A stretch of DNA of 64,000 bases from positions 2,850-66,849 of the forward strand of contig CADBOM010000150.1 in assembly GCA_902796325.1 (NCBI GenBank). The letters run 5' to 3'. Source of the DNA: an uncultured Coriobacteriaceae bacterium (GTDB lineage: Bacteria; Actinomycetota; Coriobacteriia; Coriobacteriales; CADBOM01). Both the position numbers and the translations under genes were made by a program. Below, piece after piece: positions 33,075 to 62,144 of the stretch (its first letter is position 1; each line of letters opens with the position of its first letter). Below the pieces are notes generated by a model. That model was not told the DNA's origin. It saw only the letters and a program-made list of their open reading frames with translations, and did no database searches.

Positions 33075-34847
33075 ATGCCCGATAAGCCCGAAAAGAGGAC
33101 AACCACCTCAACAGACACTCCATTGGACAGTCCATTGGGCAGCCCAGATATCGAGCTGCCCAATCAACCGAACATGGGGTTTACCAAAATTCCGCCCAAG
33201 TTCGCGCAACAGCTTCCCGGATTCCTGTCTCCGCTAAGCAGTGCGGAAATAGCAAAAAGGAGGGAATCTGGCCGAAAGCCCGGCGACACCAACATCGTCG
33301 ATTACGCCAGGCACGAGAAGCACACCTTCTGGCAAAAGCCGCTGAGCCGCGTTGACAGCCTCATACTCTCGCAATTGGCTTATCTGAAGTGGAAGAACAT
33401 CCCAGCCGTTCCATCTGAGATCGAGTATCCAGATCCTCCCCTTATGCGAAGCCTATGCACGCTCGATGACTTTAGGAAGATCTTGGACAAGGGCCTGGAT
33501 TACGAGAAGAAGTTTGGCCTTATGTCGCTTATATATGTGTCGCCGAGATGGAAGAACATGAGGATCATCAACCACACCGACGAGTTCGACGCCAGCGCAG
33601 ACAAGCAGTTCTCGGCAACCACGTTCCTGCTTCCGGACGGCACCATATATGTTTCGTTCAGGGGAACCGACTCAACGATAGTGGGCTGGAAGGAAGACTT
33701 CATGCTGGCGTTCGAGGACCCCATTCCCTCCCAAGCTCGCGCAGCAGAATACTTGGAGCAGATAGCCAGCGCCACATCTGTCCGTGCAGGTCTCGCCCAT
33801 GCGGGTCACGACCATGAGGGTCTCGCCCGCGAGAGTCTCTATGAACATGATGCAGTAGGCGCGTACTCGAGTTCGTCCGCGAGCCTGCCTGGTGTGCCCG
33901 GAGAAATCAACTCCGGCACCTTCTCGGAATCGCCTAGCCCAATCGTGGTTGGCGGGCACTCCAAGGGCGGGAACCTTGCAGTGTACGCCGCTGCCGCATG
34001 CTCGGAGCAAGCACGGTCACGCCTGCGCGCCGTATACAGCCACGACGGACCAGGGTTTTCGCAGGAAACGATGGACAGGGTCAACATCTCCAAAATCTTG
34101 CCAATCATGGACAAGACCGTGCCGGGAGGCTCAACCATAGGAATGCTCCTGGGCGACCCGTCGAGATACAAGATAGTTCGCTCGAACGAAGTTGGCTTCT
34201 ACCAGCACGATGCGTACTCCTGGATAGTGAAAGACGGGGATTTCGAGTACCTGGATACCCTGGACGAGTCCGCCAAGTTCTTCAACACCACGATGGCCAA
34301 CTGGATATCGGGATTGAGCAAGGAGCAGATGCGAACCTTCACGGACGTGCTGTTCGGCATGTTCGGCGCCAATGGGTCGCCAAACATCCAGACTCCCATG
34401 GACCTTCCGTCGGCCACGGAATACCTGAACAAGCTAGACCCTGAGATGAGGGGCATGTTCCTCGAGGTGATGGGCAGGTTTTTCAGAGCGTCGGCTCAAG
34501 AGGCCAGCACAAATGTGAGAGGAGCCGCCTCGGAAGCCAGAGAAGCTGCGAGCGAAGCGGCCGAAGATGTTGGCAGGCGTATTTCCGAGGCTCGGGAGCA
34601 GGCGGCAGACGCCATGGAAGATGCGGCCGAGAACATAGGAAACAAGCTGGAGGATGCCGTTAGCAATGTTGGGGCTGCAGTAGAAGACGCCGTGGAGAAC
34701 ATCGGAGAAAACATCGGAGATGCGGTGGAAAACGCCATGGAGAATGCCGCAGAGAACCGAAAGGCTTTGGGCGACAAGATCCACTTGCCAATTCCCCTTC
34801 CTGCGGTTCCGGAGCCAAGAACCACGGAAGACGATAGCGCAAGTTAA
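33075..34847 (+). CDS. DUF2974/Mbeg1-like alpha/beta-hydrolase (lipase-like) with repeat-rich C-terminal tail
   Basis: 590 aa. Nucleophile elbow GGHSKGGNLA, downstream YSHDGPGF and FYQHDAYSW. No signal peptide or TM segment. Confidence 0.7.
   Translation: MPDKPEKRTTTSTDTPLDSPLGSPDIELPNQPNMGFTKIPPKFAQQLPGFLSPLSSAEIAKRRESGRKPGDTNIVDYARHEKHTFWQKPLSRVDSLILSQLAYLKWKNIPAVPSEIEYPDPPLMRSLCTLDDFRKILDKGLDYEKKFGLMSLIYVSPRWKNMRIINHTDEFDASADKQFSATTFLLPDGTIYVSFRGTDSTIVGWKEDFMLAFEDPIPSQARAAEYLEQIASATSVRAGLAHAGHDHEGLARESLYEHDAVGAYSSSSASLPGVPGEINSGTFSESPSPIVVGGHSKGGNLAVYAAAACSEQARSRLRAVYSHDGPGFSQETMDRVNISKILPIMDKTVPGGSTIGMLLGDPSRYKIVRSNEVGFYQHDAYSWIVKDGDFEYLDTLDESAKFFNTTMANWISGLSKEQMRTFTDVLFGMFGANGSPNIQTPMDLPSATEYLNKLDPEMRGMFLEVMGRFFRASAQEASTNVRGAASEAREAASEAAEDVGRRISEAREQAADAMEDAAENIGNKLEDAVSNVGAAVEDAVENIGENIGDAVENAMENAAENRKALGDKIHLPIPLPAVPEPRTTEDDSAS
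34516..34762 (+). repeat. 33 nt (11-residue) periodic coding repeat in the DUF2974 tail
   Basis: EDAAENIGNKL / EDAVSNVGAAV / EDAVENIGENIG / DAVENAMENAA, preceded by the looser AEDVGRRISEAREQAADAM. Confidence 0.75.
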
Positions 34848-34874
34848 TTGGATTTTTGCCAAAAGGCCATCGGG

Positions 34875-36086
34875 ATGAGTATGAGCGTGAACATGAGTAA
34901 CAGCAACGCCAACAGAAACGAAGATATAAGACCGTCCATGAGCCCGCATGGAATCATCGGGTACGTGGCGGACGAGCAGCGCACGTTCGACGAGCTGCCC
35001 TTCAGCCGCGTGGACAGCCTGGCGTTCTCTCAGCTCTCGTACTTCAACTGGGGAGAACTGGATGGAATTCCTCTTGGTTTTGCCTTCGACAACCCGGTGA
35101 AGATCAAAGACGTGTTCAAGCTTGGAGACTACACCAGGATGTTCGGCATCGCGAGGGATTTCGACGACAACTCGGCTCTCTATGCGCTGATGTGCGTATC
35201 CAGGCGATGGGGAGACGTGAGAATTCTCAACCATTGCAGCATCTTCGACGATGACGTTGACAAGCAGTTCTCCGCCACAACGTTCCTGCTGCCAACCGGG
35301 CTCGTCTACGTCGCGTTCCGTGGAACCGACATGACCGTCACGGGTTGGAAGGAAGACTTCATGCTGGCTTTCCGCAAGCAAATTCCATCCCAAACGGAAT
35401 CGACGCTGTACCTCGACAACGTGATAAGGGGCATTCGCGACAAAATGCGCCAAAGCGAGCTGCAGCGGGGATACCCGCTAACCGGGAGGATGGTGGTTGG
35501 TGGCCACTCCAAGGGAGGGAATCTGGCCATCTACTCGGCAGCTACCTGCGCTCCCCACGGATTCGAGATGATAGACAAGATCTACGACCACGATGGGCCG
35601 GGATTCTCCAGAGAAGCCATGAAGCTAGCCAACATTGGGAAGGTGGTTGGCAAGGTTGATAAAACGGTGCCGGTTGACTCGATCGTGGGCGTGGTGCTGC
35701 CAGACCCCTGCGATTACCTGGTCACCCTCTCTAACGCCACGGGGCTAGACGAGCACAACCCCTACCATTGGAGAGTTGTAGACGGAGACTTCGAGTACGC
35801 AGACGAAGTCTCTGGAATATCGAGGCTTTTTGGAAAGACCATGGACACCTGGCTCTCAGGACTCACGAAAGAACAGATGGCAACTTTCACAGATGCGTTC
35901 TTTGGAATCCTGAGCGCCGGCAAGACCACGAACCTCGAGGACATCGATCCAAGCCACATCAGGGACAGCGCCATGTATCTCAGGAAAATGGATCCCAAGA
36001 TGAGGAAGATGTTCTTCGACGTATTTGGGAAGTTCTTCCAGACCTCCGCTAGAAACCTGCTGTGGGAGCTGTTATCGGCAAACTAG
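34875..36086 (+). CDS. DUF2974/Mbeg1-like alpha/beta-hydrolase, second paralogue
   Basis: About 403 aa. GGHSKGGNLA, YDHDGPGF and LDEHNPYHW are collinear with the upstream paralogue. The first ATG is at 34875. The ORF is open from 34848, directly after the upstream stop. Confidence 0.7.
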   Translation: MSMSVNMSNSNANRNEDIRPSMSPHGIIGYVADEQRTFDELPFSRVDSLAFSQLSYFNWGELDGIPLGFAFDNPVKIKDVFKLGDYTRMFGIARDFDDNSALYALMCVSRRWGDVRILNHCSIFDDDVDKQFSATTFLLPTGLVYVAFRGTDMTVTGWKEDFMLAFRKQIPSQTESTLYLDNVIRGIRDKMRQSELQRGYPLTGRMVVGGHSKGGNLAIYSAATCAPHGFEMIDKIYDHDGPGFSREAMKLANIGKVVGKVDKTVPVDSIVGVVLPDPCDYLVTLSNATGLDEHNPYHWRVVDGDFEYADEVSGISRLFGKTMDTWLSGLTKEQMATFTDAFFGILSAGKTTNLEDIDPSHIRDSAMYLRKMDPKMRKMFFDVFGKFFQTSARNLLWELLSAN

Positions 36087-36168
36087 AGCGCGGGTCAACG
36101 CGTGCGTGGGTCAACGCGTGAGCCGAGGAATCTTGCCCGCCACGCAAAGCAAATCACGCATAGCAGAT

Positions 36169-36275: not shown

Positions 36276-39200
36276 CTATGCAGATGCCTCCTCGCACCAT
36301 TCCTTGATGGAGCTGTTAAGCGCACTCTCTCCGCCAAGCACATATCCGGTGAATATCGCATCGCCGTTGGTGCCGATGACGGAATCGATTGCTGCCTTCG
36401 ACGCGTCAGTGCCGTCGAGCAGCAGCAGTGCAGAGCCGCTCTGTCCGAGCAGGTTCACCGATGCCAGAGCATCCGGGAAGTTCACGCCAGATGCCACGGC
36501 CATTCCGTCGTAGCTAAGCGGCGTTGCAGGCGCAAACGTTGCCTCGTCACCAGTTGGGGTGGTGCTGGTCTCCCAAGCAACTACCTCGGCAGAGGTGTCG
36601 TAGCGAGTCTGTCCTGCAAGGCGGGTGTACTGCACGCCGTCACCCAGCTGGGCCTTGAGAGCCTCGAAGTTAACGGAAGCATCTCCGCCGACGACCACGA
36701 TCTTATTGAAGCCGCCGTCCTTGATGGCCTGAACCTCGGCGTCGTTGATTGCTCCGCCCGTGGCACCGAAGATCGGAGCCTTGTCATAGGATGCGAATGC
36801 GCCGATGGAGAGCGCGTCGGCGAAGCCGTCGACGCTCACGACTATTGCCGTGTCGCCCCAGCTGGCCTTGCCGGTCTCGTAGACCTTGAGTCCGGTCTCG
36901 ATGCGGTTGGCTCCCGCAATGCGCGAGGTTTCCGCAACTCCGTTAGTGGTTGCAATCGAGTTCTCAACGTCGGCAGAGACTGCCACAGGTCCACCGATGA
37001 TATAGACCTTGGCGCTTCCGTTGGACACACGAGCGATTTCGGCCTCAGCCTCCGGCGAGAGCGTTACCGGATCGGTGAGGATCACGGGCGCATTGTATGC
37101 ACCGGAGAGAGCCGATGCCGAGAGAGCGTCGGGGAATGCCGCTCCGGACGCCACGATGATCGTGGATGCGGAGCCGTCCTTCCAGCTTTGGGCAACTATG
37201 GACTGCATGGTGCCGTAGCGGGTGGCGCCGGAGAGGCGTGTCCACTGAGCAGGCGCAACATCCGGTGCAACCACGATGTCCATGGTCTGGCTGGCCGTGC
37301 CGGCAGAGCTCGTAGCCGTCACCGTTACGCTGTAGGTTCCAGCGGTAGTTGGGGTGCCGGTGATCTTGCCGGTTGCAGCATCGAACGCGAGTCCTTCGGG
37401 CAGACCCTCGACGCTAACCTCCGGTGCCGGGTTGCCCGTGGTCTCGATGGTGGCCTCGTAGGCCTCGCCCACCTTGCCAGAAGGCAGCTCGGAAGTGCTG
37501 ACTGCAGGCGCAGCGTAATCCGGGTCGACGTCGCCCGAGACCGTGATGGTGCCGGCCTTCTCGTCCATGGCGATGGTGTACTCCACCCAGCTGCCGGTCC
37601 TCGCGTTGCGGAAGGCCGCCACGGCCTTGCTGCCGGTTATCTGCTTGGAGGAGCCCAGGGTGTTGGCGAACTCCAGCGTGAACGGCTGGCCCTGGGACAC
37701 CGCCACGGTGCCCTCGGTCGCCGCGGCCGCGTCGGCCGCGCTTCCCGCGTAGGCCATGTCGTAGGTGGAGTCTGCCATGGTGATCGTGGGCTGGAGCCTG
37801 TACTCGTTGGACGCGGGGGTCCCGAAGTAGTAGAGGCTGCCCTTGGCCTCCGGGTTGAAGGAGGCCACGGTGCTGGTGACCGACACGTCCTCGGCCCCGC
37901 GGTAGTTACCGGCCCTGAGGGTGCCGGCGTTGGCGTCGATCACGAGCTGGCGGCCGGTGAAGGCCCTGGTGTAGTCGGGGCTGTCGGGGTTGGCCTTCTC
38001 GGCGGCCGTGGCCCTGGAGTTGGAGACGGCCACGACGGGCACCGTCGCGGTGCCGTCGGCGCCGAGGGTCACCGGGACCCTGAAGGTGAGCTTGCTGGCC
38101 ACGCCGTCGTTTACCTCCTGCACCTGCGGGTCGTCCTGCGGGCGGTCGGTGAAGTAGTGCTGGTCCACGTCCTTCTTCACGCTCTCTACCCAGTTGTCGT
38201 GGCTGGCGCCCTGCTGGGCCGCGAGGGCCTCGTCCACGGTGCCCGGGATCACGTACTTGTAGCCGCTTCCCGAGAGCGAGAACTCGACGTAGGTCTGGCC
38301 GTCCTCCTCGATGAGGTTGGCGTTCACGACCTTGAACATGAGCTCCTCGTCTGTTGGGACGAGGGATGTGACCTTAGCTGCGTCCTTCACAACCAACTCG
38401 TATGTCTGGCTGGTGGATCCGGTGGAGCTTGTTGCCGTCACCGTTACGCTGCTGGTGCCTGCGGCCGTAGGTGTTCCGGTAATCTTGCCGGTTGCGGCAT
38501 CGATTGTCAGACCCTCGGGAAGTCCGGTGGCGCTATAGGTGATATCGCTCGGAGTTCCGGTTGCCTCCACGGTTGCCTCATAGGCATCTCCAACCCTGCC
38601 GAAAGGCAGCTCGGTTGTAGAGATCACAGGCAGCTCGTTAACCACGAGGGTGAGGTCCCTAGATGTAGACCAACCGTTAGTTGTGTTGTATTCCACGGTA
38701 ATGTTGTAGGTTCCCGCGGTGCCAGCGGCCGGGGTGCCGCTGAGCGTTCCGTACTCGGCGAGGGTTAGCCCTTCGGGCAGGCTGCCCTTGCTGATGGAGA
38801 ACGAACCCGTCTGGGCGGCGCCATCCCAGGACTCCTGCTCGATTGTGGTGCTGTAGGCCTGGCCTACCGCGGCATCCGGGAGCTCCGTGGTCGTGATGTT
38901 GGGATTGTCTACCATCTCTAGCGTGTACTGCTTGCTCACGCTGCCAACCTTGTTAGATACGGTGACTGTAAACGTGTAAGTACCCGGGTTGCACCTTATC
39001 GTGCCCTCGAAGTGTCCGGTTTCCGAGTTGATCCTCGTTCGCCTTGGCATCGTTCCGTCGGTAACCTGCCAGGTTAGATCTCCACCGGTGGCCTCGATGG
39101 CCATATCACTGACGCTCTGTCCATAATGGACCTTGCCCAAACTCTCCGTCGTGATCTGCGGAGCACTTTCGATGGTTACCGTGAAGGTCTTGCTGGCTTG

Positions 39201-42200
39201 GCCGAACGAATCGGAGCCATCTATGGCATCGTTCTGGTAGCACTCCCAATCGGTGAAGCTGTAGGTCTCGCCGCCCTTGCAGCTGGCGTCCACGGTACCC
39301 GAGACGGTCCTGGTGGCGGGGTCGTAGGTAAGACCATAGGCAGAGCCGCTGCGTGTGGTTTCGGCCTTCAGCAGGTCGGACGGGTTGCCCACGGGATTCA
39401 CCGTGAAGCTGTAGGACTGGCCGGGTATAGCAACCGGGATGTCGTCCTGCGTGGTGCTCCAGGTAATTGGGTCGCAAACGTTCATGGGCAGTGTAGCCAA
39501 GGCAATTCCTGCGGAGTTGCTAACAGCCACCTTAACGTTGTACTTGCCGGCCGTGGTCGGGGTGCCGCTGATGGTTCCGTCGGTGCTCATGGTAAGACCA
39601 GCAGGGAGCGTAGAGCCATCCACCATGTAGGTGAAGTCGTAAGGGCTTCCCGTAGCGTTAACCTTGGCGGTGTAGCCGTCTCCCACCATGACATCCGGCA
39701 GATAGGTGTTGGTAATCTGCGGGGTAACATTGACGGTCTTGCCCGTTACCTCCACCGTGGCGTATGCGGGCAGAGCCTGTACCTCTTCGCTGGTGTCCTT
39801 AGCCCACACATAGTAGGTGCCGGGCACGTTGATCGAGAGGCTTGCCACCCCGGTATCGCTAACCGGGACAGATCCACATGGCTTGTTAAGCTCCGTGCCG
39901 AAGTAGACCGTACCCGCACTTGCAGCATGATAGGTCTGAACCGATGCAGGCTTCCACATATCCTGGTTGGGCATGCCAATATAGACATCGAAGGCATTGC
40001 CTGTGGTCTGCGCCGAGAGCTCGTGGATTGGCGAGCTGAAGCTGTCATTCTGGAAGAAGTACAGGAAGTCGCCATTCCACTTGACGGGCGTGAACGCCGT
40101 CATATCCACGTAGTCGCCGTCATGCAGCGGGATGTGGTCTGCAGTTGCACCCACGTTGTAGGATGCGCCCCACTGCTTGGTGAGTTCGTTGTCCATGGGC
40201 CAGCAGCCGTTGATATAGTAGTTGAGGTTGGAGCTGAGGCCGAAGAACCCACCCATGAACATGCTTCCCGGGCTACCACCGTAAACCTTGGCATCGAATC
40301 CGCCAGAGTAGTAGTTCTCGCTCAGGTACACGAACAGCTGGATCATCGTGGTCTCGTACTCGTAATCGGCATCGGAGGCCGGGAACCCGTTGGCATCGCG
40401 GGCGGTGTAATTGAACTTGCCCATGCCGTGCTCGTCGAGGTCGACCTTGCTCACCTCTGAGAGGTCGATCGGGATGTAAGCCATCGTGGTGCCGGAGTCC
40501 TTGCCGTCAGAGATCACCCAATCGCCCTCGTTGGAAAGCGAGAAGTAGATGGTGCCGGTGGCCTCGCGGTACTTGGTCTTGATGGTTATGGGCAGAGTGG
40601 TGGTTGCCGTGACGCCGTCATCGGTGGTGGCCACGAAGGTGACCTCGGTCTTGCCCTTTGTGGTTGGGGTACCGGTGATGGCACCGTTCTCATCCATCGA
40701 GAGACCGTCGGGCAGTGCGCTGCCGTCGGCCAGGCTCCAGGTTACCTTGTCGGACGACGAGGTAGCTGCAAGCTGCCCGGAGTATGTGGTGTTAACCACG
40801 ATGGAGGGCAGCTCTGTTGTGGTGATGGTGAGGTTGTTCTTCACCAGCAAGGTAACGTCGACTGCCTGGGTGGTTACGCCATCGGAGCTTATGGCCTCAA
40901 CGGTGAAGGTGTACGTTCCAGCCTTGGCCGGTGCACCGCTGATGGTTCCGTCGCTAGCGATGGTAAGGCCATCGGGAAGCGCGGAGCCACCGAGGAAGTA
41001 GAACGACGGGTTATCGATGTCGACAGTCTCGATCTTTCCGGTGAAGTTGGCACCAACGGTAGCGGTGCCAAGGTCGGTGGTGGTGACCCTCGGGGTCTTG
41101 TTAACGGTCAGGGTGTATGCCTTGGAGCTGCTACCCCAATCGTTGGTTGCGGTAACCGTGAACGAATAGTCACCAGAAGCAGCCGGCGTACCAGACAGGG
41201 TTCCATCGGAGCTCAGGGTTACACCCTCGGGCAGGGAGCCGCTGGTTACGGCCACGGTTCCAGTGGGAATACCGCCGGCAACGATCTTCGCGCTGTAAGC
41301 AGTTGCCGCGCTAGCCGCCGGCAGAGAGGTGGTCTCGATAGACGGGGCCACACCGTTCACGGTAACGGTTGCGATTGCGGGCGAAGAGGTTATGCAGTCG
41401 AGGTTCTCGTCCATATAACCATCGGCCCATACGTAGTAGGTACCAGGCTGATCGAAGGTAACCTCGGCCGTTCCATCATCGCCGGTAATGATATCGGAAT
41501 CGAACGCCTTATCGGTGTTGTATGCGGTGCCGGTATGCAGCATGACTCCCTCAGAGTCGCCGTAGCTGGTGGTGTACTCGCTCCAATCTGGAGCGGCATG
41601 GATAACCTTCACGGTAAGGGGCTCTCCAGCAGTTGCCGTGTACTCGTGAACAACGGCGCTTGCATCGGCATCTGCCTCTGGATCTGCGAACCAATCGAAC
41701 GGCGAGTAGGTACCAAACGGAGCGCTCCAATCGGCCCAGTCTGCCATGTCGATATGGTCGCCATCGCTAACCACGATGTGATCGCTGGTTGCACCCCATG
41801 CGGGACGCTCGAGCGGGTACACGTAGTTGTGATAGTAGTTGAGGTTGTAGCCAAACCCGAAGAATCCGGACGAAATGAACGAGCTGCCGGGAGCTCCGGT
41901 GATAACGAGCTCGCTGGTTCCAGCTGCAGAGTAGTGCTGGAGAGTGTAGACGAACACCATCATCATGGTTACTTCGTAAACACCATCGCCATCCGCATCG
42001 TAGGCATATTGTCCAAGACCGTAATCGTCAAGATCGATCTTGCTAACCTCGGCGAGGTCGATCGGAACCTCTGCCATGTATCCATCACGGCCGTTCATCT
42101 CGCCATCGGCTGGCACGAACACGCCGTCCTGTGAAATCGATATGTAGACGGTTCCCTCAGCTGCCTTGTACTTGGGCACTACATTGAGCGTGAGCTCCTT

Positions 42201-45200
42201 GGAAGCCGCGGGCTCAATGCCGTTATCGGCGGTAACGGTGAAGGTATACTCGCCAATCTCATCGGTGGTTGGAGTTCCAGTGATGTAGCCGTCAGCAGTG
42301 AGCTTCATGTTATCGGGCAGAGCGCCATCGGTGATGGTCCACTTCATGGTGCTGGGGCTACCCTTAGCAGCTAGCTTTGCGTAATAGCCCTCGTTTGCCC
42401 TGGCGTTGTCGAGCGTTGTAGTGGTAATTGTTGGGGCAACCTTGTCCACAACGGTCACAGTTGCCAGCGCAGGGGACGACACCACGTTGTTGTTGGTAGC
42501 GCCCATCTGTCCATCGGCCCACACGTAGTAGGTTCCAGGAGTCGTGAACGTGTACTGAGCGGTTCCATCCGCCCCGGTGGTAACCGTTGCGGTCTGTGTG
42601 CCGTAGGCGGAACCAACGGCAAGCGTGTAGTTGTCCGCCGCTGCTGTGGTGACCGTCATCTTGTAATCCGGCGCAGGATACGAGTAAGTGGTCTTGTCCA
42701 GCGTGAATGTCACGGGCTCGCCGGTGAATCCGGTGTATGCGTGCGTGATGCTGCCGTTAGACATGAAGTAGTGGTCCGCCGCATTGGCATCGCCATAGGT
42801 GCTGCCGGTGTAGGTGAACACGTTCCAATCCTGGCCAGCTGCAAGGTCAACACGGTCTGCGGTGATCATGCTGCCGGAGCCATCGCTCGGCGCCACACCG
42901 TTAATCGCATAGGTGATGTTGGCAGAGCCATTGCCCCAGAAGCTATTGATGTACAGGCTGCCGGGAGCGGAGTATTGGTTGAGCTCTAGGCCCGAGGTAC
43001 CGCCGCTATCGTAGTGGTCGAGCACGTACAGGTACAGCTGCAGCCCGGTAACGTCATAGGAGCCGTCACCATCGGAGTCGTACTTGTAATCTCCAAGGCC
43101 ATAGTTGTCCAGGTCGTACTTGGCAACATCGGACAGGTTCACTGGCACGTAGCTCATAACCTTGCCTGCGGTCTGACCGTCGCTGGTCACGAACTGGGCG
43201 TCTTTGGAAACAGACACGTAAACGGTGCCCTTGACGTTCTCGTACTTTGCCACGCACTTGACGTTGATGCGCTTGGTAACGCTGGTGCCGTCGCTTGCAG
43301 TGGCCTTTACGTTAACGTAGCTGGTGCCCGCGTACTGGCGGGTACCGGTGATGGTGCCGTCGCTTGCAACCTTAAGCCAACCGTAACCATCTACCTTGCT
43401 CCAGGTTACGTCGTCGCGATTAGCCGTGAGCTTGTAGGTGTATGGAATGTTGGTATATGCAACGGGAGCATCGGAATCGGAGGTAATCTCGAGCTTAGGC
43501 CTAACCGTGATGGTGTAGTTCACGGTATCGGTGCTTCCCTGGCTGTTGCTTGCGAACACGCTGATGTTGGCAACGCCAGCCTCGGTAGGCGTGCCGCTGA
43601 TAACACCGGTGGTTGTGTCAAGCGTAAGCCCTGCAGGCAGGGTCTCGGTACCAGAGAACCATAGCTGAGGAGCCGGGTATCCGGTTGTCTCGATCTTCTG
43701 ATTGTATGCAGTTCCTATGGTTGCATCTGGCAGAGTTGCCGTGGTGATGGCAGGAGCTGCATTAACTGCGAGAGTGAAGCTTGCAGCAGCGCTGGTTCCG
43801 AGCGTGTTAGTGGCGGTAACGGTAACCGTGTATGCGCCTCCAGCAGTTGGAGTACCCGAAATCTTACCGGTTGTGGCATCGATCGAAAGCCCTTCCGGGA
43901 GCCCAGTTGCAGCAAACGTGGCTGCAGGCTCTGCAGTGGCTTCGATGGTTGCCTCGTAGGCCTGTCCCGCGGTTGCCTCGGGCAATGCCGTGGTGGTGAT
44001 AGTGGGAAGCTCACCGGAAACCACGATGGTAATCGTGGTCTGGTCGCTCATTCCAGCGGAGTTCTTGGCAACCACATCGAACGTATAGGTGCCAACAGCG
44101 GCAGGGATTCCGGTAACCTTGCCGTTGGAGAAGCTCAGACCCTCCGGCATGCTGCTACTACCAGACAGATACCAGGTAACCTCGGCAGGATAGGCGTCGG
44201 CGGAAAGCGCTGCATCTACCGGCACGCCAACCACTGCATCGATCTCGGTAGTCGTGATCTTCGGTGCGCGATAGTCCACAACTGCGCCATAGGTGCCATC
44301 GGCATTCTGGGACATGGTCATGTTCTCGACCAGATAGGGCTTCACTGTGGAGAGATCGACGGCCGCCGAGTAGGTGCCGCCGGAAATCTGGATGTCGCCC
44401 TGCTCGATCCCCGAGTAGGCACTGTTGATCATGACGGCCATCGGGGCGTCGAAGGTGCCGCCGGTGATCGTGAGCTTGCCCGTGTCCACGGAGTCGTCGA
44501 GCTTGCCGTTGCACACGCAGCAGGTGGCCTTGCCGTCGGTCGGGCCAGTGAAGGTTCCACCCGAGATGGTGCACACGCTCCAGTTGAGGATCGGGCCCTG
44601 TGTGGTGTTGGAGAAGCTGCCGCCCTCGATGGAGAGCACGCCGCCGTCGTCGTTCTTCACGGTGTTGAGGCCGCCGGAGAACGTGCCGGACTTTATAGTG
44701 AGGTCCGGGGCCGCGGCGTTGGTGCCGTCCACGTAGCCCAACCGCGAGTCGGTGGAGCTGTAATTGTAGTAGCCGTTCTCGATAAGCGACGAGTAGGTGT
44801 CAGTGCGATCCATCGTGGCGCCATCGATCGTCATGGAGCCGTGGTTCACCACGTTGTAGTACTTGCTCTCCTTCTCGATGGTGACCTGGCCGATTTGGGC
44901 GGTGCCGTCGTTGAACACCGCCGCCTTGTTATCGATCGTGCTCTCCACGGTACCCGCACCGGTGAGCGCGAGCTTCGCGCCCTGCGCCACGTACACGGTG
45001 TCGGCGTCGGAGGCGTTGGTCAGCGTGTGCCCCGCGAGGTCGAGCGTCACGTCAGCCCCGGCCGGGACCACGACATCCTCGGACACATCCGAGGCGAGCG
45101 TCACGGTGCCGCCCTGGCCGGCCGCCGCTATTGCGTCGGCGACGGTGGCGTATCCGGTATCGCCAACGGTGGCCACATATGTTGTTTCACCTCCCCCGGA

Positions 45201-45305
45201 GCCTTGATCCGCATATGCCCCGATGGGCGACATGCCCATCACGAACACCACGGATAAGAGGACTAGGAGGATCTTGCTTGGTAAAGATACCTTCGTAGCG
45301 TCCAT
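36276..45305 (-). CDS. Giant (about 3009 aa) cell-wall-anchored surface protein: signal peptide, beta-helix, 14 Ig-like (He_PIG/cadherin-like) repeats, three large repeated modules, one unassigned module, 3x CWB2
   Basis: Signal peptide MDATKVSLPSKILLVLLSVVFVMGMSPIGAYA after RBS GAAAGGAAGG. GGTF/GGSF/SGTFSGG rungs. Fourteen LPxGLxxDxxTGxISGTPTxAGxYxxTVTA units. Three GTxYxSxSxxG...NYxxNG...GTYYVWA modules. C-terminal triple RxxGxxRYxT...FPDALS repeats. Confidence 0.9.
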   Translation of the reverse strand: MDATKVSLPSKILLVLLSVVFVMGMSPIGAYADQGSGGGETTYVATVGDTGYATVADAIAAAGQGGTVTLASDVSEDVVVPAGADVTLDLAGHTLTNASDADTVYVAQGAKLALTGAGTVESTIDNKAAVFNDGTAQIGQVTIEKESKYYNVVNHGSMTIDGATMDRTDTYSSLIENGYYNYSSTDSRLGYVDGTNAAAPDLTIKSGTFSGGLNTVKNDDGGVLSIEGGSFSNTTQGPILNWSVCTISGGTFTGPTDGKATCCVCNGKLDDSVDTGKLTITGGTFDAPMAVMINSAYSGIEQGDIQISGGTYSAAVDLSTVKPYLVENMTMSQNADGTYGAVVDYRAPKITTTEIDAVVGVPVDAALSADAYPAEVTWYLSGSSSMPEGLSFSNGKVTGIPAAVGTYTFDVVAKNSAGMSDQTTITIVVSGELPTITTTALPEATAGQAYEATIEATAEPAATFAATGLPEGLSIDATTGKISGTPTAGGAYTVTVTATNTLGTSAAASFTLAVNAAPAITTATLPDATIGTAYNQKIETTGYPAPQLWFSGTETLPAGLTLDTTTGVISGTPTEAGVANISVFASNSQGSTDTVNYTITVRPKLEITSDSDAPVAYTNIPYTYKLTANRDDVTWSKVDGYGWLKVASDGTITGTRQYAGTSYVNVKATASDGTSVTKRINVKCVAKYENVKGTVYVSVSKDAQFVTSDGQTAGKVMSYVPVNLSDVAKYDLDNYGLGDYKYDSDGDGSYDVTGLQLYLYVLDHYDSGGTSGLELNQYSAPGSLYINSFWGNGSANITYAINGVAPSDGSGSMITADRVDLAAGQDWNVFTYTGSTYGDANAADHYFMSNGSITHAYTGFTGEPVTFTLDKTTYSYPAPDYKMTVTTAAADNYTLAVGSAYGTQTATVTTGADGTAQYTFTTPGTYYVWADGQMGATNNNVVSSPALATVTVVDKVAPTITTTTLDNARANEGYYAKLAAKGSPSTMKWTITDGALPDNMKLTADGYITGTPTTDEIGEYTFTVTADNGIEPAASKELTLNVVPKYKAAEGTVYISISQDGVFVPADGEMNGRDGYMAEVPIDLAEVSKIDLDDYGLGQYAYDADGDGVYEVTMMMVFVYTLQHYSAAGTSELVITGAPGSSFISSGFFGFGYNLNYYHNYVYPLERPAWGATSDHIVVSDGDHIDMADWADWSAPFGTYSPFDWFADPEADADASAVVHEYTATAGEPLTVKVIHAAPDWSEYTTSYGDSEGVMLHTGTAYNTDKAFDSDIITGDDGTAEVTFDQPGTYYVWADGYMDENLDCITSSPAIATVTVNGVAPSIETTSLPAASAATAYSAKIVAGGIPTGTVAVTSGSLPEGVTLSSDGTLSGTPAASGDYSFTVTATNDWGSSSKAYTLTVNKTPRVTTTDLGTATVGANFTGKIETVDIDNPSFYFLGGSALPDGLTIASDGTISGAPAKAGTYTFTVEAISSDGVTTQAVDVTLLVKNNLTITTTELPSIVVNTTYSGQLAATSSSDKVTWSLADGSALPDGLSMDENGAITGTPTTKGKTEVTFVATTDDGVTATTTLPITIKTKYREATGTIYFSLSNEGDWVISDGKDSGTTMAYIPIDLSEVSKVDLDEHGMGKFNYTARDANGFPASDADYEYETTMIQLFVYLSENYYSGGFDAKVYGGSPGSMFMGGFFGLSSNLNYYINGCWPMDNELTKQWGASYNVGATADHIPLHDGDYVDMTAFTPVKWNGDFLYFFQNDSFSSPIHELSAQTTGNAFDVYIGMPNQDMWKPASVQTYHAASAGTVYFGTELNKPCGSVPVSDTGVASLSINVPGTYYVWAKDTSEEVQALPAYATVEVTGKTVNVTPQITNTYLPDVMVGDGYTAKVNATGSPYDFTYMVDGSTLPAGLTMSTDGTISGTPTTAGKYNVKVAVSNSAGIALATLPMNVCDPITWSTTQDDIPVAIPGQSYSFTVNPVGNPSDLLKAETTRSGSAYGLTYDPATRTVSGTVDASCKGGETYSFTDWECYQNDAIDGSDSFGQASKTFTVTIESAPQITTESLGKVHYGQSVSDMAIEATGGDLTWQVTDGTMPRRTRINSETGHFEGTIRCNPGTYTFTVTVSNKVGSVSKQYTLEMVDNPNITTTELPDAAVGQAYSTTIEQESWDGAAQTGSFSISKGSLPEGLTLAEYGTLSGTPAAGTAGTYNITVEYNTTNGWSTSRDLTLVVNELPVISTTELPFGRVGDAYEATVEATGTPSDITYSATGLPEGLTIDAATGKITGTPTAAGTSSVTVTATSSTGSTSQTYELVVKDAAKVTSLVPTDEELMFKVVNANLIEEDGQTYVEFSLSGSGYKYVIPGTVDEALAAQQGASHDNWVESVKKDVDQHYFTDRPQDDPQVQEVNDGVASKLTFRVPVTLGADGTATVPVVAVSNSRATAAEKANPDSPDYTRAFTGRQLVIDANAGTLRAGNYRGAEDVSVTSTVASFNPEAKGSLYYFGTPASNEYRLQPTITMADSTYDMAYAGSAADAAAATEGTVAVSQGQPFTLEFANTLGSSKQITGSKAVAAFRNARTGSWVEYTIAMDEKAGTITVSGDVDPDYAAPAVSTSELPSGKVGEAYEATIETTGNPAPEVSVEGLPEGLAFDAATGKITGTPTTAGTYSVTVTATSSAGTASQTMDIVVAPDVAPAQWTRLSGATRYGTMQSIVAQSWKDGSASTIIVASGAAFPDALSASALSGAYNAPVILTDPVTLSPEAEAEIARVSNGSAKVYIIGGPVAVSADVENSIATTNGVAETSRIAGANRIETGLKVYETGKASWGDTAIVVSVDGFADALSIGAFASYDKAPIFGATGGAINDAEVQAIKDGGFNKIVVVGGDASVNFEALKAQLGDGVQYTRLAGQTRYDTSAEVVAWETSTTPTGDEATFAPATPLSYDGMAVASGVNFPDALASVNLLGQSGSALLLLDGTDASKAAIDSVIGTNGDAIFTGYVLGGESALNSSIKEWCEEASA
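36279..37244 (-). repeat. Three cell-wall-binding type 2 (CWB2) repeats, the C-terminal anchor of the giant protein
   Basis: RLSGATRYGTM...AFPDALSASAL, RIAGANRIETG...GFADALSIGAF, RLAGQTRYDTS...NFPDALASVNL. Confidence 0.8.
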
Positions 45306-45340
45306 GGCCTTCCTTTCTTCCCGAATCCCAATACTTGCCA

Positions 45341-45390
45341 ATACAAAAAGAGGGCCGCAGCAACTATCAATTGCCACGGCCCGTTTTTGC
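45341..45390. terminator. Terminator-like hairpin in the leader of the giant surface-protein gene
   Basis: gggccg-ca-gcaa / ttgc-ca-cggccc (45352-45382), with T-runs on both strands (GTTTTT on +, TCTTTTTGTATT on -). It lies 40-80 nt upstream of the ATG at 45305. Confidence 0.55.
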
Positions 45391-46426
45391 CATGTTTATC
45401 GTGCATGTTCGAAGTTCAAATGTCCGGTAGCCTTGAGCCAAATCCCCCAACACGGAGGCTCCAGATATTATCGAATTCAAGAGGTTGCCTAAATCCGGGC
45501 ATGTTCTTGAATTCCCATGCACATCATTGCAGCAGGTCTTCTGACTCGCGCATCGGGTTTTCGCCTTTCCGAAAACCCAGCTACACCCTTGCCTTCCCAG
45601 AAACTTGGACCAGACTGGCTAAGCTAGTCCAGTTAATCCAAAGTTCCAGTGACTCCCTATTCGAGATGGATGCAGCCATTACGCCTACAGCGACGGATAC
45701 CGTTTGGGCATTTGACCCAATTCCCTAACCAAGCCCTAAGCCAGCTTGGCTCCTCTTTGCAAGACCGGTACAAGCAACCCAGATCGTCTTCGAACATCGC
45801 TGTCTTCGATAATCGGCAGCTCACCTTGTCATGCGAGGCACTCTGCAACGTTTATTTATTCAATTGTGAGTATTTACATACTTAGGATTAGTATAGACGT
45901 GACAGCTAGCCAATTCGACCATTTAAAGTTATCGGAATTTAAAATCTTTCAATGGAAAAGTTAACTGGAGCAATATTTTGTATCCCAACGACGAGGCTAT
46001 CAACGATAGGCTATAGCTCATCACAGCCGCAGCAGCTCCCTGTTATGCGGGATTGTGGAGAGCCAGTACTTAGAATGCCAGCGCAGTAAGTTGTTGGTCC
46101 TCGCAAGAGCAGCGAACCGTAGTCGCACTTTAGTGGCTGCAGGCAATGGAACCTCAGGCAATATGCACGCAAATTGGGCGCACCCTCCCAAGACGAAGGA
46201 CGCGCCCCATCAGAACATGAAAATGCCCCAAGCCCAATTTTCAACTGGGTTTGAGGCATCTATACATTGGTGCATATTAGCAGTGGCAGCCGTCCGCGCA
46301 TCTGGTCACATGCAGTGCCTAGCGCTTACCTCGGCGGAGTTTCTCGCGCGAAGGTAGCAAGCGCATTCGACTTGATTATGCGCATCCGGCTCGTGCAGGT
46401 GCTTGCAACCTGGCCAAGAGCTTGCG

Positions 46427-47215
46427 CTACTTGGTCACGATAACCTGTCCGATAACTGCGTCGTTCTCAACAGTGGACACGTGGTAGTCCATCGGCTGAT
46501 ATCCGTCGGCCTCGATCTTCACGTCGAATTCGCCCTCTGCGGCATCCTTGAACATGAAGTCGCCGAAGTCGTCGGTGTCGATAACGGCAACCTCGTTGCC
46601 CTCGGCATCGGTGATGGTTACCTTAGCGCCGATGATAACCTCGTTGATCTCGCGGTCTGCAACGGTACCACAGATGCGGCGACCCGGCAGATTCTTGTAA
46701 TACAGGTGAGATCCCGGCTCTGCAGGAACAGCGCCCTCAAGGTCGAGCTCGCTCTCCTCGCCAAACTGAAGCGCTCCGGTTGGGCACCAGTCCACGCAAC
46801 GGGGAACATCCCATCCGTCATCGAGCAGGTGGGCGCATCCGGTGCACTTCTGTGCAACTTGCTCGGCATCGTTCCAGAACACCTTGTCGCAAACTCCGCG
46901 GAGCTGCTCCTGGCCCTTTGCCTTCACCGGGTCGATGATGATGATTCCGTCGTCGCGGCGGTAAACAGCGCCGTCCTCGGCAAGCTCGAGAAGCTTGCAG
47001 TCGTCGCAGTTGCCACATGCCTCGAACTTGTAGTTAACGTGCACGAACGGAGTCTTGCCCATCTCGCGCTCGGTAATCTTGCCCCAGAACTGGCCGGTCA
47101 TAGGCTGAGCTGCGGTGTAGCCTTCCCAAGCCTGCTCGCAATGCTCGTCCTTGCACGCAATCTGGCAACCGTAGCAGCCGTTGCAGATGGACGCATCAAA
47201 AAGAAATGCCTTCAT
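46427..47215 (-). CDS. Molybdoenzyme Fe-S (beta) subunit with C-terminal transthyretin/CarboxypepD_reg-like domain
   Basis: 262 aa. CNGCYGCQIACKDEHC, CGNCDDC, CTGCAHL...CVDWCPTGA. C-terminal beta-sandwich GTVADREINEVIIGAKVTITDAEGNEV. Confidence 0.8.
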   Translation of the reverse strand: MKAFLFDASICNGCYGCQIACKDEHCEQAWEGYTAAQPMTGQFWGKITEREMGKTPFVHVNYKFEACGNCDDCKLLELAEDGAVYRRDDGIIIIDPVKAKGQEQLRGVCDKVFWNDAEQVAQKCTGCAHLLDDGWDVPRCVDWCPTGALQFGEESELDLEGAVPAEPGSHLYYKNLPGRRICGTVADREINEVIIGAKVTITDAEGNEVAVIDTDDFGDFMFKDAAEGEFDVKIEADGYQPMDYHVSTVENDAVIGQVIVTK

Positions 47216-47225
47216 GTTTTAGCCC

Positions 47226-49850
47226 TTACTCCTCTACGATAACGTCCTCGACGCACATGCCGCATTCAGACGTGTAGTGATCCCTGTGGAAGTCGACCTC
47301 TGCGCCGTACTCCTCCTCGAGTGCCTTGATGTCTACCTTCTTCATACCAACCAGGTATCCGGAGGTAACCTCGCCAGCCGCATTCTTGGAAGTGATGGCC
47401 GATGGAGCGATCAGGTTGTTTGCACCGCCGCGGTCGATTCCGCCAACGCCCATCTTGATTGGGTCGACGTGCGTGCCGTGGTCCTGGCTCACAACACCGG
47501 GCATGATGCGCTCGGTAATCCTAGCTCCGCCGAGAACGGTACCACGCTCGTTGAACAGGCCCACGATGTCGCCGTCCTTTATGCCTTCCCTCTCAGCATC
47601 GATCGGGTTGATCCAAACGGGCTCGTATGCATAACCGTCCTCGCCGATAACCTTGCAGGTATCGATCTCGCGGAACCATGGATTGTCGTCCATGTTGGCG
47701 TGGACCCTCCACTTGGGGTGGTTGGAGACGATGAGGTACGGGAACTTCTTGGCACGCTCGCTGTTGAGACGGTCGTCGTGTCCTGCACCCTTCTCAACCC
47801 AGTGGGCGGTTGGCTGGCGCTCCCTATCGTCTGGCCAGGTGGTTGCAATCGGCACCGAGTAGTACTCGAGCTTTCCGGTTGGGGTATCGAGAGGATACTT
47901 CACCGGGTCCTTGTAGAAGTTGTACATACCGGCGGGCAGCTTCTCGTAGGAGCGGTAGGTTGGAACAAGCTCGAATCCGTACTTCTCGAAGTTGTCCCAG
48001 TCGTACTGCTCGTCGGTAAGGCCGCAACCCTCGTATCCGCGCTTGACCTGAGCCTCCATCGACATATCCTTGCCGTCGGTGTAGCGCTCGTACAGGTTCT
48101 CGTAAACACCGCCGAACTTCTCGAGGTGCTTGCAGATCTCGCAAACGATTTCCCAATCCGACTTGGAGTCGGTGGAAGCCTCGACAGCCTGCTTCTCGTA
48201 CACGATAACTGGGAACTGTCCATTCATCGGGTCGGTATTGAAATCGGTGAGCTCGAGCTTGGTGCAAGCCGGCAGCAGGATGTCTGCGAACAGGCAGTCG
48301 TTCTCGAACCATGGATGCTGAATGAGCACGAACTCCATGGACGGCAGGCGCAGGGCATCTTCCAGCTCGTTTCCGCCGTTCCAGCAGGTGGTCCAGCAAG
48401 GAGAGTCGCTCCACACCATGTGGATCTGGTAATCCTCGCCAGGAGCCGGATACTCGTACGGATCGAACTGGTCGATCCTGGGCTTGGTGCAGGTAACCTG
48501 GCCGTACCAATGCAGATGCTCGCCACGGATAGCGGCAGGAATCATAGTCTTGGGGATGAAGCTAGGCGGCAGCTCGCCCAAAATGTTTCCGTTGTAGCAT
48601 GCGTTTGCAAGCGGCATGTACGAACCAATGGGGAGCGGGCAGCAGCTGAGCTTTCCGAAGATCGACCACTCCAGGAACTTGAACTGGTTGCGTCCAGGAT
48701 GTCCGACGGCCTGCATTCCCAGCAGGTAGACCTCCAGTCGAGCGGGCTCATGCGAGAATGCCGCACGAATATAAGAACCGCCGTTGCAATGCGCGATGGA
48801 GGTGTTGTGGGTTGCCCAATGGCGAGCGAATGCCTTGATGGTGTATGCGGGAATTCCGGTCCACTTCTCGGCCCACTCCGGGGTCTTCACGATGCCATCG
48901 TCCTTGCCCATGACGTGATAGACGAACCAATCGAATCCGTCGGCATGGGTTGCAATGTATTCCTTGTCGTAAAGATCCTCGGTAATCCAAACGTATGCGA
49001 TTGCAAGCTGCAGAGCAGAGTCGGTGTTGGGGAGAACCGGAATCCACTTGTCGGCATGAACGACAGCCGCGTAATTGCAGTCTGGAGCAACAGCGATCTG
49101 CTTGATGCCGCACTCGGAGAGCTTGAACGAGATGAGGGAGGGCATGCATCCGCCCCATCCCCAAGGCGTGGTCTCGAAGTCGCATCCCCAAAGCAGAAGG
49201 GTGTCGCCGTTCTGCATGATGTCCTCGATGATGTTGAACTGCTGCACGTTCTGTCCCACAGGATCGTGGCCCCAAACGTGCTTGGCACCCCAGTACCAGC
49301 CCTCCCAGGAGTCTGGCTGGCGAGCCTGAAGGGTGTAACCGCCGGTAAGATCCAGCATCTTGCACATGCATCCGTGCGGGCCGTGAATCGCCTTGGTCTC
49401 GCCATGGCCATCGGCCTGCACCAGCATGGACATCCTGCCGTACTTCTCGGTGATGCGGTTGATTTCGGAAGCCACTATATCGAGAGCGTCGTCCCACGAA
49501 ATGCGGCGGTACTTGCTCTTGCCGCGGTTCTCAGGATGACGCTCTCCGTTGGGATCGAAGTCCTCGCGAATCAGAGGATAAGGAATCCTGTTCTTGGAAT
49601 ACGTGGTTGTCTTTGCGGAGAACGCGAACGGTGGAATCAGCGACTTCATACCCGGCTCGAGAGTGTGGCCCCTACCGTCGGAAATCGTCCAGTAGTTCAG
49701 ATCCTCCTTGTTCTTGTACCTCTTGTCGTAATGCGCCGGGCGCACACGAACAACCCTGCCGTCCTTCACATCGAATGCGGCGATGTTGGCGCCATGGCCA
49801 AAGCAGCACATTCCCGTGTTCTGGACAACAGTCTTGTCAGCAGTCTTCAT
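47226..49850 (-). CDS. Bis-MGD molybdopterin oxidoreductase, pyrogallol hydroxytransferase (transhydroxylase) large-subunit-like, cytoplasmic
   Basis: 874 aa with no twin-arginine signal. RIPYPLIREDFDPNGERHPENRG, RISWDDALDIVASEINRI and DSWEGWYWGAKHVWG closely resemble my recollection of the Pelobacter acidigallici enzyme (about 875 aa). Confidence 0.7.
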   Translation of the reverse strand: MKTADKTVVQNTGMCCFGHGANIAAFDVKDGRVVRVRPAHYDKRYKNKEDLNYWTISDGRGHTLEPGMKSLIPPFAFSAKTTTYSKNRIPYPLIREDFDPNGERHPENRGKSKYRRISWDDALDIVASEINRITEKYGRMSMLVQADGHGETKAIHGPHGCMCKMLDLTGGYTLQARQPDSWEGWYWGAKHVWGHDPVGQNVQQFNIIEDIMQNGDTLLLWGCDFETTPWGWGGCMPSLISFKLSECGIKQIAVAPDCNYAAVVHADKWIPVLPNTDSALQLAIAYVWITEDLYDKEYIATHADGFDWFVYHVMGKDDGIVKTPEWAEKWTGIPAYTIKAFARHWATHNTSIAHCNGGSYIRAAFSHEPARLEVYLLGMQAVGHPGRNQFKFLEWSIFGKLSCCPLPIGSYMPLANACYNGNILGELPPSFIPKTMIPAAIRGEHLHWYGQVTCTKPRIDQFDPYEYPAPGEDYQIHMVWSDSPCWTTCWNGGNELEDALRLPSMEFVLIQHPWFENDCLFADILLPACTKLELTDFNTDPMNGQFPVIVYEKQAVEASTDSKSDWEIVCEICKHLEKFGGVYENLYERYTDGKDMSMEAQVKRGYEGCGLTDEQYDWDNFEKYGFELVPTYRSYEKLPAGMYNFYKDPVKYPLDTPTGKLEYYSVPIATTWPDDRERQPTAHWVEKGAGHDDRLNSERAKKFPYLIVSNHPKWRVHANMDDNPWFREIDTCKVIGEDGYAYEPVWINPIDAEREGIKDGDIVGLFNERGTVLGGARITERIMPGVVSQDHGTHVDPIKMGVGGIDRGGANNLIAPSAITSKNAAGEVTSGYLVGMKKVDIKALEEEYGAEVDFHRDHYTSECGMCVEDVIVEE

Positions 49851-52065: not shown

Positions 52066-52174
52066 TCGCCCGGCTCTACGTTTATATAAAAATCCCCAAC
52101 AAGTATTTATCAGAATCGTTGCGACAAATCAGATGGTTTTGCCTAGTTTTTTGTCAGTTGCGCAAATTGCCGTG

Positions 52175-53287: not shown

Positions 53288-53913
53288 CGGAATCCCTTCG
53301 ATTTCAAAGCTTCCAAATAACTTCCGCACCGGTGCTCGCGAGAACTAAAGCACCGTGCTTTTGCTGCAGCGAACCGTGCTCTTGCCATAGCGCACCGAGC
53401 TCCCGCATCAGCGACTCCATCGCGTCAACGCACCAGCGCAGAGCTTCCGGACAATAGGCACATTGCACGTTGGAGCAGTCCGCATCTGATTGCAAGCGCG
53501 ATGTAACGGCTGCATATGTTCGCGAGTACATTCATAGACGCCGTGTCGTTCGTTTGCGTTTCTATTTACGGCATCTGTGGGCTGCGAAGACGAAAGCTGC
53601 ATGCCAGTCTTACGCGCCACGTGTGCATTGTAAGCCAGCGTCCGCACCTTCAGACACTCGATTACGCAATTGCATGGGTTGTCTGGTCGGCGGGAAAACG
53701 AATCTACGAAATCTTCACCTTGGAGATGACTTGATGCGGAATGACTTGCCGATAAGAACGATCCCCCGCTTATAAAACGACTCCCCGCATCGCATGTTTT
53801 CGCAATGCAGGGAGAAAATACAGAGAGCCAATTCAGTTCGGCTGAATTTTTGCGGCTTCCGAGTGGAGCCGCTTCAGCGCGCTGTCACTTTCGCGTGTTG
53901 TCTCAACCGCAGC

Positions 53914-54921: not shown

Positions 54922-54956
54922 TTTTTAAACCCTAGCTAGATGGTAGCATTAGCGGG

Positions 54957-57161: not shown

Positions 57162-57178
57162 AACCAGTGAGCCAGCCC

Positions 57179-59340: not shown

Positions 59341-59584
59341 TTTTGGATCCTCCAAGCAGATGCGCCGGTAAACGCATAATTTATATTCAAGGCGAACATT
59401 ATAATACACGCAAACCGCATGTTATTGCACATGTGAGCATTTGCATGAGCCCGTCTTGATGCACCGGGTTGCATACAGGCAAGATCAACATGCAAATGCC
59501 ACAAGCATATGGAGGCTAGGCCCGGGCACGGCGGGCACGCGCGGAAGCCCTTAACGCGCTGTCAGCAAAACGAAAGAAGCAATC

Positions 59585-60853: not shown

Positions 60854-60952
60854 GGTTTCGCAGGCTCGGGCTATCGCAGGCTCGGGCTATCGCAGGCTCG
60901 GGCTATCGCAGGTTCGGGCTTAGCGCGCTCGGGTTTCGCAGGCTCGGGTTTT
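60853..60952. repeat. 15-16 bp tandem repeat (about 6 copies) directly after a stop codon
   Basis: gggtttcgcaggctc / gggctatcgcaggctc x2 / gggctatcgcaggttc / gggcttagcgcgctc / gggtttcgcaggctc / gggttttt. Confidence 0.9.
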
Positions 60953-62141: not shown

Positions 62142-62144
62142 CTT

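Follow-up and report, generated by a model that had tools for sequence, protein, structure and literature searches.

A giant CWB2-anchored protein gene behind a cobalamin riboswitch: a candidate for extracellular corrinoid capture in a probable actinobacterium

What function does a giant wall-anchored protein serve when its gene stands behind a cobalamin (vitamin B12) riboswitch? The question arises from a 64,000-nucleotide (nt) stretch of contig CADBOM010000150.1 (positions 2,850 to 66,849), derived from an uncultured Coriobacteriaceae bacterium and referred to below as the window, in which an open reading frame (ORF) at 36276..45305 on the minus strand encodes a protein of 3009 amino acids (aa) from ATG 45305. 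An earlier note on this DNA, made from its letters, had recognized this ORF and described its product as a modular surface protein with immunoglobulin (Ig)-like repeats and a CWB2 wall anchor, probably an adhesin or, if one likeness held, a protein for the capture of corrinoids. The current study bears out the architecture and points, on balance, to a B12-repressed, wall-anchored, multivalent extracellular corrinoid-capture protein; corrinoid capture is the leading explanation because a cobalamin riboswitch lies in the leader of this gene and recurs upstream of its relatives.

A cobalamin riboswitch aptamer (RF00174) was identified with Rfam cmscan at 45514..45764 on the minus strand, 209 nt upstream of the ATG, where it covers model positions 1-189 of 189 and scores 49.2 bits against a gathering score of 31.5 (E 2.9e-9). 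It is the sole cobalamin riboswitch found by Rfam in the window, and its B12 box, AGTCAGAAGACCTGC, is conserved with the riboswitches upstream of relatives. There are no genes between the aptamer and the start codon, and the interval holds an intrinsic terminator (45342..45382, minus strand; terminator scan and RNA fold) in which a 14-base-pair GC-rich stem is followed by the U-tract UCUUUUUGUAUU, 47 nt before the ATG. The terminator hairpin was calculated at -29.4 kcal/mol, with a z of -4.6 against shuffled sequences, and would serve as the expression platform of an OFF switch that acts by transcription termination. The gene appears to be monocistronic, and this arrangement makes its control by a B12 riboswitch very likely. 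Counted from GTG 45377, the minus-strand frame ending at 36276 comprises 3033 open codons; because this GTG falls inside the terminator hairpin, it is an unlikely start codon and ATG 45305 the likely one. A Shine-Dalgarno-like GAAAGGAAGG can be read from the sequence directly 5' of that ATG (45308..45317, minus strand). Both the riboswitch and the terminator sit just outside the coordinates covered by the earlier note, and the suggestion of corrinoid capture made there is strengthened because of leader riboswitches that it had not included, those of this gene and of its relatives, which provide strong independent support.

The relatives are defined by a module of ~265 aa that occurs three times in the protein: module 1 at residues 688-948 (42462..43244), module 2 at residues 1046-1312 (41370..42170) and module 3 at residues 1579-1853 (39747..40571), all on the minus strand. 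These copies, which the earlier note had estimated at ~270 aa and placed to within ~30 nt, share 34-43% pairwise identity, with GT(V/I)Y.S.S and PGTYYVWA common to all three and DxDxDG calcium-type loops in modules 1 and 2. The module is recognized by neither Pfam nor NCBIfam. A word-indexed search returned 17 relatives, mostly secreted proteins of ~380 aa that combine the module with a dockerin, and an exhaustive HMMER search of 1.84 billion representatives returned 434 proteins at E <= 1e-30, which corresponds to a family of at least 434 clusters at 50% identity. The query profile of the exhaustive search included dockerin columns, which also dominated its comparison with PDB profiles, so that its weaker matches were contaminated; the best 165 matches were re-tested with a module-only hidden Markov model (HMM), and the module was present in every one of them (165/165), starting within the first 60 residues, right after the signal peptide, in 122 (122/165). 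Among 80 representatives, the partner domains were dockerin (21), Big_2 (10), fn3 (4), prenyltransferase-like toroid (4), CWB2 (3) and SLH (3), while LRR_5, Flg_new and cadherin-like domains also occur on family members. Canonical DUF4430 domains are found elsewhere in four family proteins, where the PF14478 matches are separate from the module, and family members combine prenyltransferase-like alpha/alpha toroids with canonical DUF4430, which are the two halves of transcobalamin. The module is extracellular, usually as the first domain after the signal peptide, and is carried on dockerin, SLH, CWB2 or fn3 anchors. Across the family, conservation falls on S, D, N, T, Y, G and P residues, and a conserved cluster of His or Cys is lacking; N109, Y112, T128, D130, G137 and D138 are among the conserved positions.

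The divergence of the broad module alignment precluded a pattern search. A first metagenome scan found nothing, and a second added a single lineage, whose module is internal and whose gene begins beyond the locus. The identical 3009-aa sequence is representative P0018 in a 15-billion-protein collection, and a whole-protein scan of the genome collection returned zero relatives, as an exact-sequence look-up of the protein among contigs returned zero matches. The minimal CWB2-anchored architecture in the family was observed at locus L008 (5872-7824, on a contig of 41% GC), which encodes 650 aa consisting of a signal peptide, one module and three CWB2 repeats.

Ten related genes had readable upstream DNA, and half of these (5/10) had a gathering-score cobalamin riboswitch directly upstream, with one further riboswitch below the threshold and one cut by a contig end. 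Those above the gathering score include L007 (60.7 bits), whose 2903-aa product has a CWB2 anchor, a signal peptide and C-terminus near-identical to those of the protein described here and a shuffled domain order (61% GC); L011/P0019 (78.2 bits), with five modules, He_PIG repeats and a CWB2 anchor (42% GC); L013/P0028 (58.8 bits), with an SLH anchor; and L001-3/P0010 (32.8 bits), which combines the module with a dockerin (47% GC). The sub-threshold case, L014/P0084, scores 22.9 bits and has a B12 box, 161 nt upstream. At L009 (1-1457) the aptamer is cut by the contig start, leaving a perfect B12 box, AAGTCAGGAGACCTGC, at 6-21 and a terminator hairpin near 93-125; a gene combining FecR with canonical DUF4430 (237-1457) lies downstream, followed directly by the two-module P0020, so that a canonical DUF4430 protein and a module protein apparently share one B12-controlled operon. 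Loci L010, L012, L015 and L021-23 stand outside this count since their upstream DNA is missing or the gene start lies beyond the locus. Every cobalamin riboswitch detected in the window and in ~190 kb of loci is directly 5' of a module-family gene or operon on the same strand, and none was found elsewhere in either. By a rough estimate, with ~13 module genes in ~170, the chance that five gathering-score riboswitches, if placed upstream of genes at random, would all precede module genes is ~1e-6. The recurrence does not reflect one mobile cassette, because the aptamers are divergent outside their core motifs (mean column identity of 44%). The riboswitch-linked module genes differ in G+C content and in wall anchor. 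It is likely, on these genomic associations, that the module family belongs to B12 physiology.

What the module might do is suggested by its predicted fold. A model of the whole module (predicted local distance difference test, pLDDT, 80; predicted template modelling score, pTM, 0.83) contains two subdomains. Compared as a whole with Foldseek, this two-domain module gave weak Ig-like matches, and the comparison became informative after the N-terminal subdomain was modelled alone. The first 150 residues of module 2, modelled by AlphaFold2 with 31 family sequences, reached a pLDDT of 95.3 and a pTM of 0.91, and the first 14 Foldseek hits of this subdomain in the PDB were rat, bovine and human transcobalamin, haptocorrin, the isolated human transcobalamin beta domain and 3u7z, a Ruminococcus gnavus DUF4430 structure deposited as a 'putative metal binding protein'; intrinsic factor was hit 18. 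With hhalign, module columns 64-144 align to canonical DUF4430 across the helix, the hairpin and the motif W/L-x-Y-x-(V/I)-N-G...DGD. In the AlphaFold2 model a helix at 69-80 is followed by strands at 89-91 and 98-101 and then by an NLNYY strand at 110-114. Among SLBB beta-grasp domains, the transcobalamin-like clade is defined by a hairpin insert after the helix (Burroughs et al. 2007, PMC1796856), and the two post-helix strands of the model correspond to this insert. The C-terminal subdomain is a beta-sandwich with weak similarities to DUF4198, Big_3_5 and Ig-like domains; the DUF4198 matches, seen in 10 of 80 members, and weak Foldseek matches to metal-binding Zcp are all below significance. 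Module 1 can be described as a predicted SLBB/transcobalamin-beta-like N-terminal subdomain followed by a GTYYVWA beta-sandwich. The earlier note's likening of an NY-x-(I/H)NG segment to DUF4430 therefore stands in part: it agrees with the fold and the motif, hhalign aligning just this region, and it does not extend to Pfam membership. Judging from these models, the module is at best a divergent relative of the transcobalamin-like SLBB clade, outside PF14478.

The remainder of the protein, encoded throughout on the minus strand, is a signal for export, a stalk and an anchor. The Sec signal peptide recognized in the earlier note lies at residues 1-32 (45210..45305); read from the translation as MDATKVSLPSKILLVLLSVVFVMGMSPIGAYA|DQG, it ends in AYA|DQ and is without a lipobox cysteine. 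The N-terminal head follows at residues 33-341 (44283..45209), with GG(S/T)(F/Y) rungs at residues 228, 249, 282 and 309, spaced by 21-33 residues. It has neither a Pfam nor a PDB sequence match, and the rungs make a beta-helix-like fold plausible. At least 639 homologues of the head were found, mostly stand-alone secreted proteins of 370-500 aa without Pfam domains, which mark it by sequence as a widespread, unannotated domain. The Ig-like repeats are interspersed with the modules and comprise He_PIG repeats 1-4 (residues 342-686, 43248..44282; Pfam PF05345 and repeat HMM), repeat 5 (951-1044, 42174..42455), repeats 6-8 (1315-1577, 40575..41363), repeats 9-13 (1857-2308, 38382..39737), of which repeat 10 is degenerate and which give PKD and He_PIG Pfam matches, and repeat 14 (2597-2681, 37263..37517), all delimited by the repeat HMM. 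The count of 14 made in the earlier note was recovered by an HMM made from the protein's own repeats, and Pfam recognized 13 stretches above the gathering score (E 9.6e-135).

Between repeats 13 and 14 lies an orphan module of 288 aa (residues 2309-2596, 37518..38381), already noticed as an unassigned module of ~275 aa, with no Pfam match, no PDB match and no homologue in the word-indexed protein search; it is absent from other module-family proteins. Three CWB2 repeats at residues 2688-3009 (36279..37244) provide the non-covalent wall anchor (CW_binding_2, PF04122, in 3 stretches; E 7.4e-38, 129 bits against a cut-off of 24.9). By phmmer this region matches Cwp8 (5j6q, 1.3e-28) and Cwp6 (5j72, 7e-21) of Clostridioides difficile, and the high-molecular-weight chains of SlpA match too. 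Pfam HMMs, which the earlier note had proposed as a check, thus accept both the CWB2 and the Ig-like assignments. The mature protein is 309 kDa with an isoelectric point of 4.1. Collapse or expansion of repeats in the assembly is unlikely because the gene is free of tandem repeats according to Tandem Repeats Finder and its longest internal DNA repeats reach at most 132 nt at 77% identity, with no near-identical copies.

These parts can be assembled into a working model. When intracellular cobalamin is high, the leader riboswitch would bind it and the terminator would halt transcription, whereas under B12 scarcity the leader would be read through and the 309-kDa protein made and exported by the Sec pathway. 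The C-terminal CWB2 triplet would dock the protein non-covalently on a wall glycopolymer, and the fourteen He_PIG domains would form an extended stalk that holds the three modules and the distal head off the wall. Each module, a predicted beta-grasp domain packed on a beta-sandwich, would bind a corrinoid obtained either from the medium or from host carriers, and the ligand would be concentrated at the surface for hand-over to a membrane importer. Selectivity for cobamides may differ among the three paralogous 'hooks' of the single stalk. Direct binding of corrinoids by the modules, which is suggested by the structural models, is an even call that leans slightly in favor.

Several results weigh against this proposal and need to be set beside it. 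The Foldseek statistics of the N-terminal subdomain are weak (E 0.07-0.5, probability at most 0.85, template modelling scores of 0.5-0.63 on small targets), as is the hhalign comparison with canonical DUF4430 (probability 13-21%, pairwise E ~1e-3). Cross-searches with HMMER showed no significant similarity between the module and canonical DUF4430, and PF14478 gave zero matches to the whole protein or to the modules taken singly, even at E <= 10. Part of the conserved hairpin, GATxD...DGD, is missing from module 1. The transcobalamin beta domain binds B12 jointly with an alpha/alpha toroid, and the 3009-aa protein is without a toroid. In addition, the readable upstream DNA of relatives L004, L008 and L016 contained no cobalamin riboswitch, and the window encodes no B12 importer genes. 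B12 riboswitches also govern genes for proteins that do not bind corrinoids, such as cobalt transporters and B12-independent isozymes.

There are several other potential explanations for a riboswitch-controlled wall protein of this kind. A generic adhesin or colonization factor, in which the head and the Ig-like repeats bind host glycans, mucus or cells and the riboswitch couples attachment to nutrient supply (a starved cell might, for example, adhere to B12-producing partners or in B12-rich niches), would leave unexplained why unrelated lineages place a ~265-aa module, on varied stalks and anchors, behind B12 riboswitches, and why the closest fold of this module is a B12-binding domain. It is considered unlikely, even though the giant modular architecture, with its 14 He_PIG repeats, repeat-rung head and wall anchor, is typical of adhesins and though Big_2, LRR_5, Flg_new and cadherin-like domains occur on family members. 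The head homologue at L017, the single such locus examined, has no cobalamin riboswitch and is in keeping with an adhesive role for the head; the adhesin function proposed in the earlier note received no specific support.

Cobalt uptake genes are commonly under B12 riboswitches, and a slightly less probable explanation than the adhesin is that the modules capture cobalt or another metal, a B12 precursor or a lower ligand for B12 synthesis or remodelling, and not complete corrinoids. The deposition of 3u7z as a putative metal-binding protein and the DxDxDG loops of modules 1 and 2 are compatible with this explanation, as is the location of bacterial transcobalamin-like SLBB genes in CbiO/CbiQ-type operons (PMC1796856). 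The best structural matches, however, are B12-bound proteins, the family lacks a conserved His or Cys cluster, and the DUF4198 (10/80 members) and Zcp matches of the C-terminal sandwich, which would also suggest metal binding, are all below significance. A structural wall or surface-layer (S-layer)-associated protein, with an incidental riboswitch or a non-functional aptamer, seems very improbable: the CWB2 triplet does resemble that of C. difficile S-layer and Cwp proteins and a wall glycopolymer biosynthesis cluster lies 5 kb away, but the riboswitch exceeds the gathering threshold by a wide margin, precedes a canonical terminator and is found again in relatives, and 3009 aa with interspersed ligand-type modules are unlike a lattice-forming S-layer protein. 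What places corrinoid capture at the cell surface ahead of these alternatives is the riboswitch, together with its recurrence upstream of relatives.

The surroundings of the gene were also surveyed. The wall glycopolymer biosynthesis cluster (50056-63965) comprises Acyl_transf_3, BacA, a hexapeptide transferase, DUF4012, three GT2 glycosyltransferases, a TuaG-like glycosyltransferase and UDP-glucose 6-dehydrogenase, and may make the polymer bound by the CWB2 repeats. Directly upstream of the riboswitch region (46427-49850, minus strand) are genes for a molybdopterin oxidoreductase (874 aa, with a pyrogallol-hydroxytransferase-like N-terminus) and a 4Fe-4S subunit with an unusual C-terminal CarboxypepD_reg/SdrD_B-like beta-sandwich. 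On the plus strand (33075-36086), two Mbeg1-like (lipase class 3-like) genes in tandem run toward the 3' end of the giant gene; the C-terminal region encoded by the first is helical and apolipoprotein-like, and the 16-nt unit GCGCGGGTCAACGCGT is repeated 2.1 times between the convergent genes (36088-36120). Farther away, a cluster on the minus strand encodes a circularly permuted ATP-grasp, an Alpha-E domain and a transglutaminase-like protein (4602-7462) and is followed by two AstE/AspA-like deacylases (2557-4605). The window also encodes an [FeFe] hydrogenase, a BaiCD/bilirubin-reductase-like flavoenzyme and RecA (8206-9267), for which mycobacterial RecA was the top match among solved structures (481 bits, versus 452 for Escherichia coli). 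The RecA score and this set of neighbors are compatible with Coriobacteriia, though they are no proof of it.

The loci of relatives have neighbors of their own. At L007 (9448-12345) and L012 (6676-8978), the giant module/CWB2 gene is followed by genes for a ~636-aa protein without Pfam domains and a MoxR-type AAA+ ATPase, a pair that is absent from the window. PQQ_2-type beta-propeller and cadherin-like surface proteins flank the module genes at L011 (11851-14156) and L012 (3-1886), and the L011 beta-propeller protein, of 2562 aa, also has He_PIG and CWB2 domains. A beta-propeller encoded beside a B12-linked gene is reminiscent of BtuG.

Competition for corrinoids shapes gut communities, and this locus offers a concrete candidate for extracellular B12 capture in Gram-positive bacteria. 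To our knowledge, Bacteroidota are so far the only group whose surface capture of corrinoids has been worked out (BtuG, BtuH, BtuJ). For Gram-positive bacteria, extracellular cobamide capture 'remains entirely uncharacterized' according to a 2026 review (PMC13616437). Bacterial surface proteins with transcobalamin-like SLBB domains were predicted to scavenge B12 (Burroughs et al. 2007, PMC1796856). In the open-access literature, no report was found that ties cobalamin riboswitches to dockerin-bearing, CWB2-anchored or other wall-anchored proteins. The locus joins a widespread unannotated module, B12 riboswitch control in several lineages and a transcobalamin-like predicted fold, and suggests that cellulosome dockerins, SLH domains and CWB2 anchors all display one B12-linked unit. 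A broader possibility, which falls a little short of an even chance, is that the family represents the missing extracellular cobamide-capture machinery of monoderm gut bacteria, a divergent transcobalamin-like unit borne on walls, S-layers and cellulosomes and repressed by B12 riboswitches. If binding is confirmed, the module would merit a family annotation of its own, and the 2007 SLBB prediction would be extended with regulatory evidence.

Among known surface systems, the Cwp family of C. difficile (Cwp8, Cwp6, SlpA) shares with the present protein three tandem CWB2 repeats combined with a variable functional region. In contrast to those proteins, the anchor here is C-terminal to a passenger of 2680 residues with unrelated functional modules, and the host is probably an actinobacterium and not a clostridium. 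We know of no Cwp protein that is regulated by B12. The earlier note had considered CWB2 anchoring in an actinobacterium worth a closer look; as a novelty this is rejected, since CWB2 has already been documented in Actinobacteria (PMC5817068).

The BtuG, BtuH and BtuJ proteins of Bacteroides thetaiotaomicron are likewise surface-exposed and controlled by cobalamin riboswitches (PMC13616437). In BtuH2 the binding domain is held off the surface by PKD/Ig-like domains, which parallels the He_PIG stalk, and several paralogous binders work in one system, as would the three paralogous modules (PMC13616437). BtuG, however, is a beta-propeller, BtuJ a DUF4465 jellyroll and BtuH a novel globular fold, none of them related to the module in sequence or fold, and no segment of the protein has a Pfam match to such Btu-type binding domains (beta-propeller, BtuH, DUF4465). 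Whereas the Btu proteins are outer-membrane lipoproteins that work with the TonB-dependent BtuB, the present protein combines a lipobox-free Sec signal peptide with a CWB2 wall anchor, which is what one would expect in a monoderm, and the likeness is one of analogy, not homology.

The closest comparison is with transcobalamin, intrinsic factor, haptocorrin and DUF4430, with which the module, as modelled, appears to share a beta-grasp core, a hairpin after the helix and the motif (W/L)xYx(V/I)NG...DGD. The likeness to bacterial DUF4430/SLBB proteins extends to the secreted, wall-anchored setting and to the co-occurrence of the module with canonical DUF4430 and toroid domains. The module differs from DUF4430 and transcobalamin in an insert of ~50 residues before the helix, which contains the DxDxDG loop, and in its invariable fusion to a specific C-terminal beta-sandwich ending in PGTYYVWA. 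Compared with transcobalamin, in which the beta domain is paired with a toroid, the protein described here has no such partner and carries instead three copies of the module strung along an Ig-like stalk.

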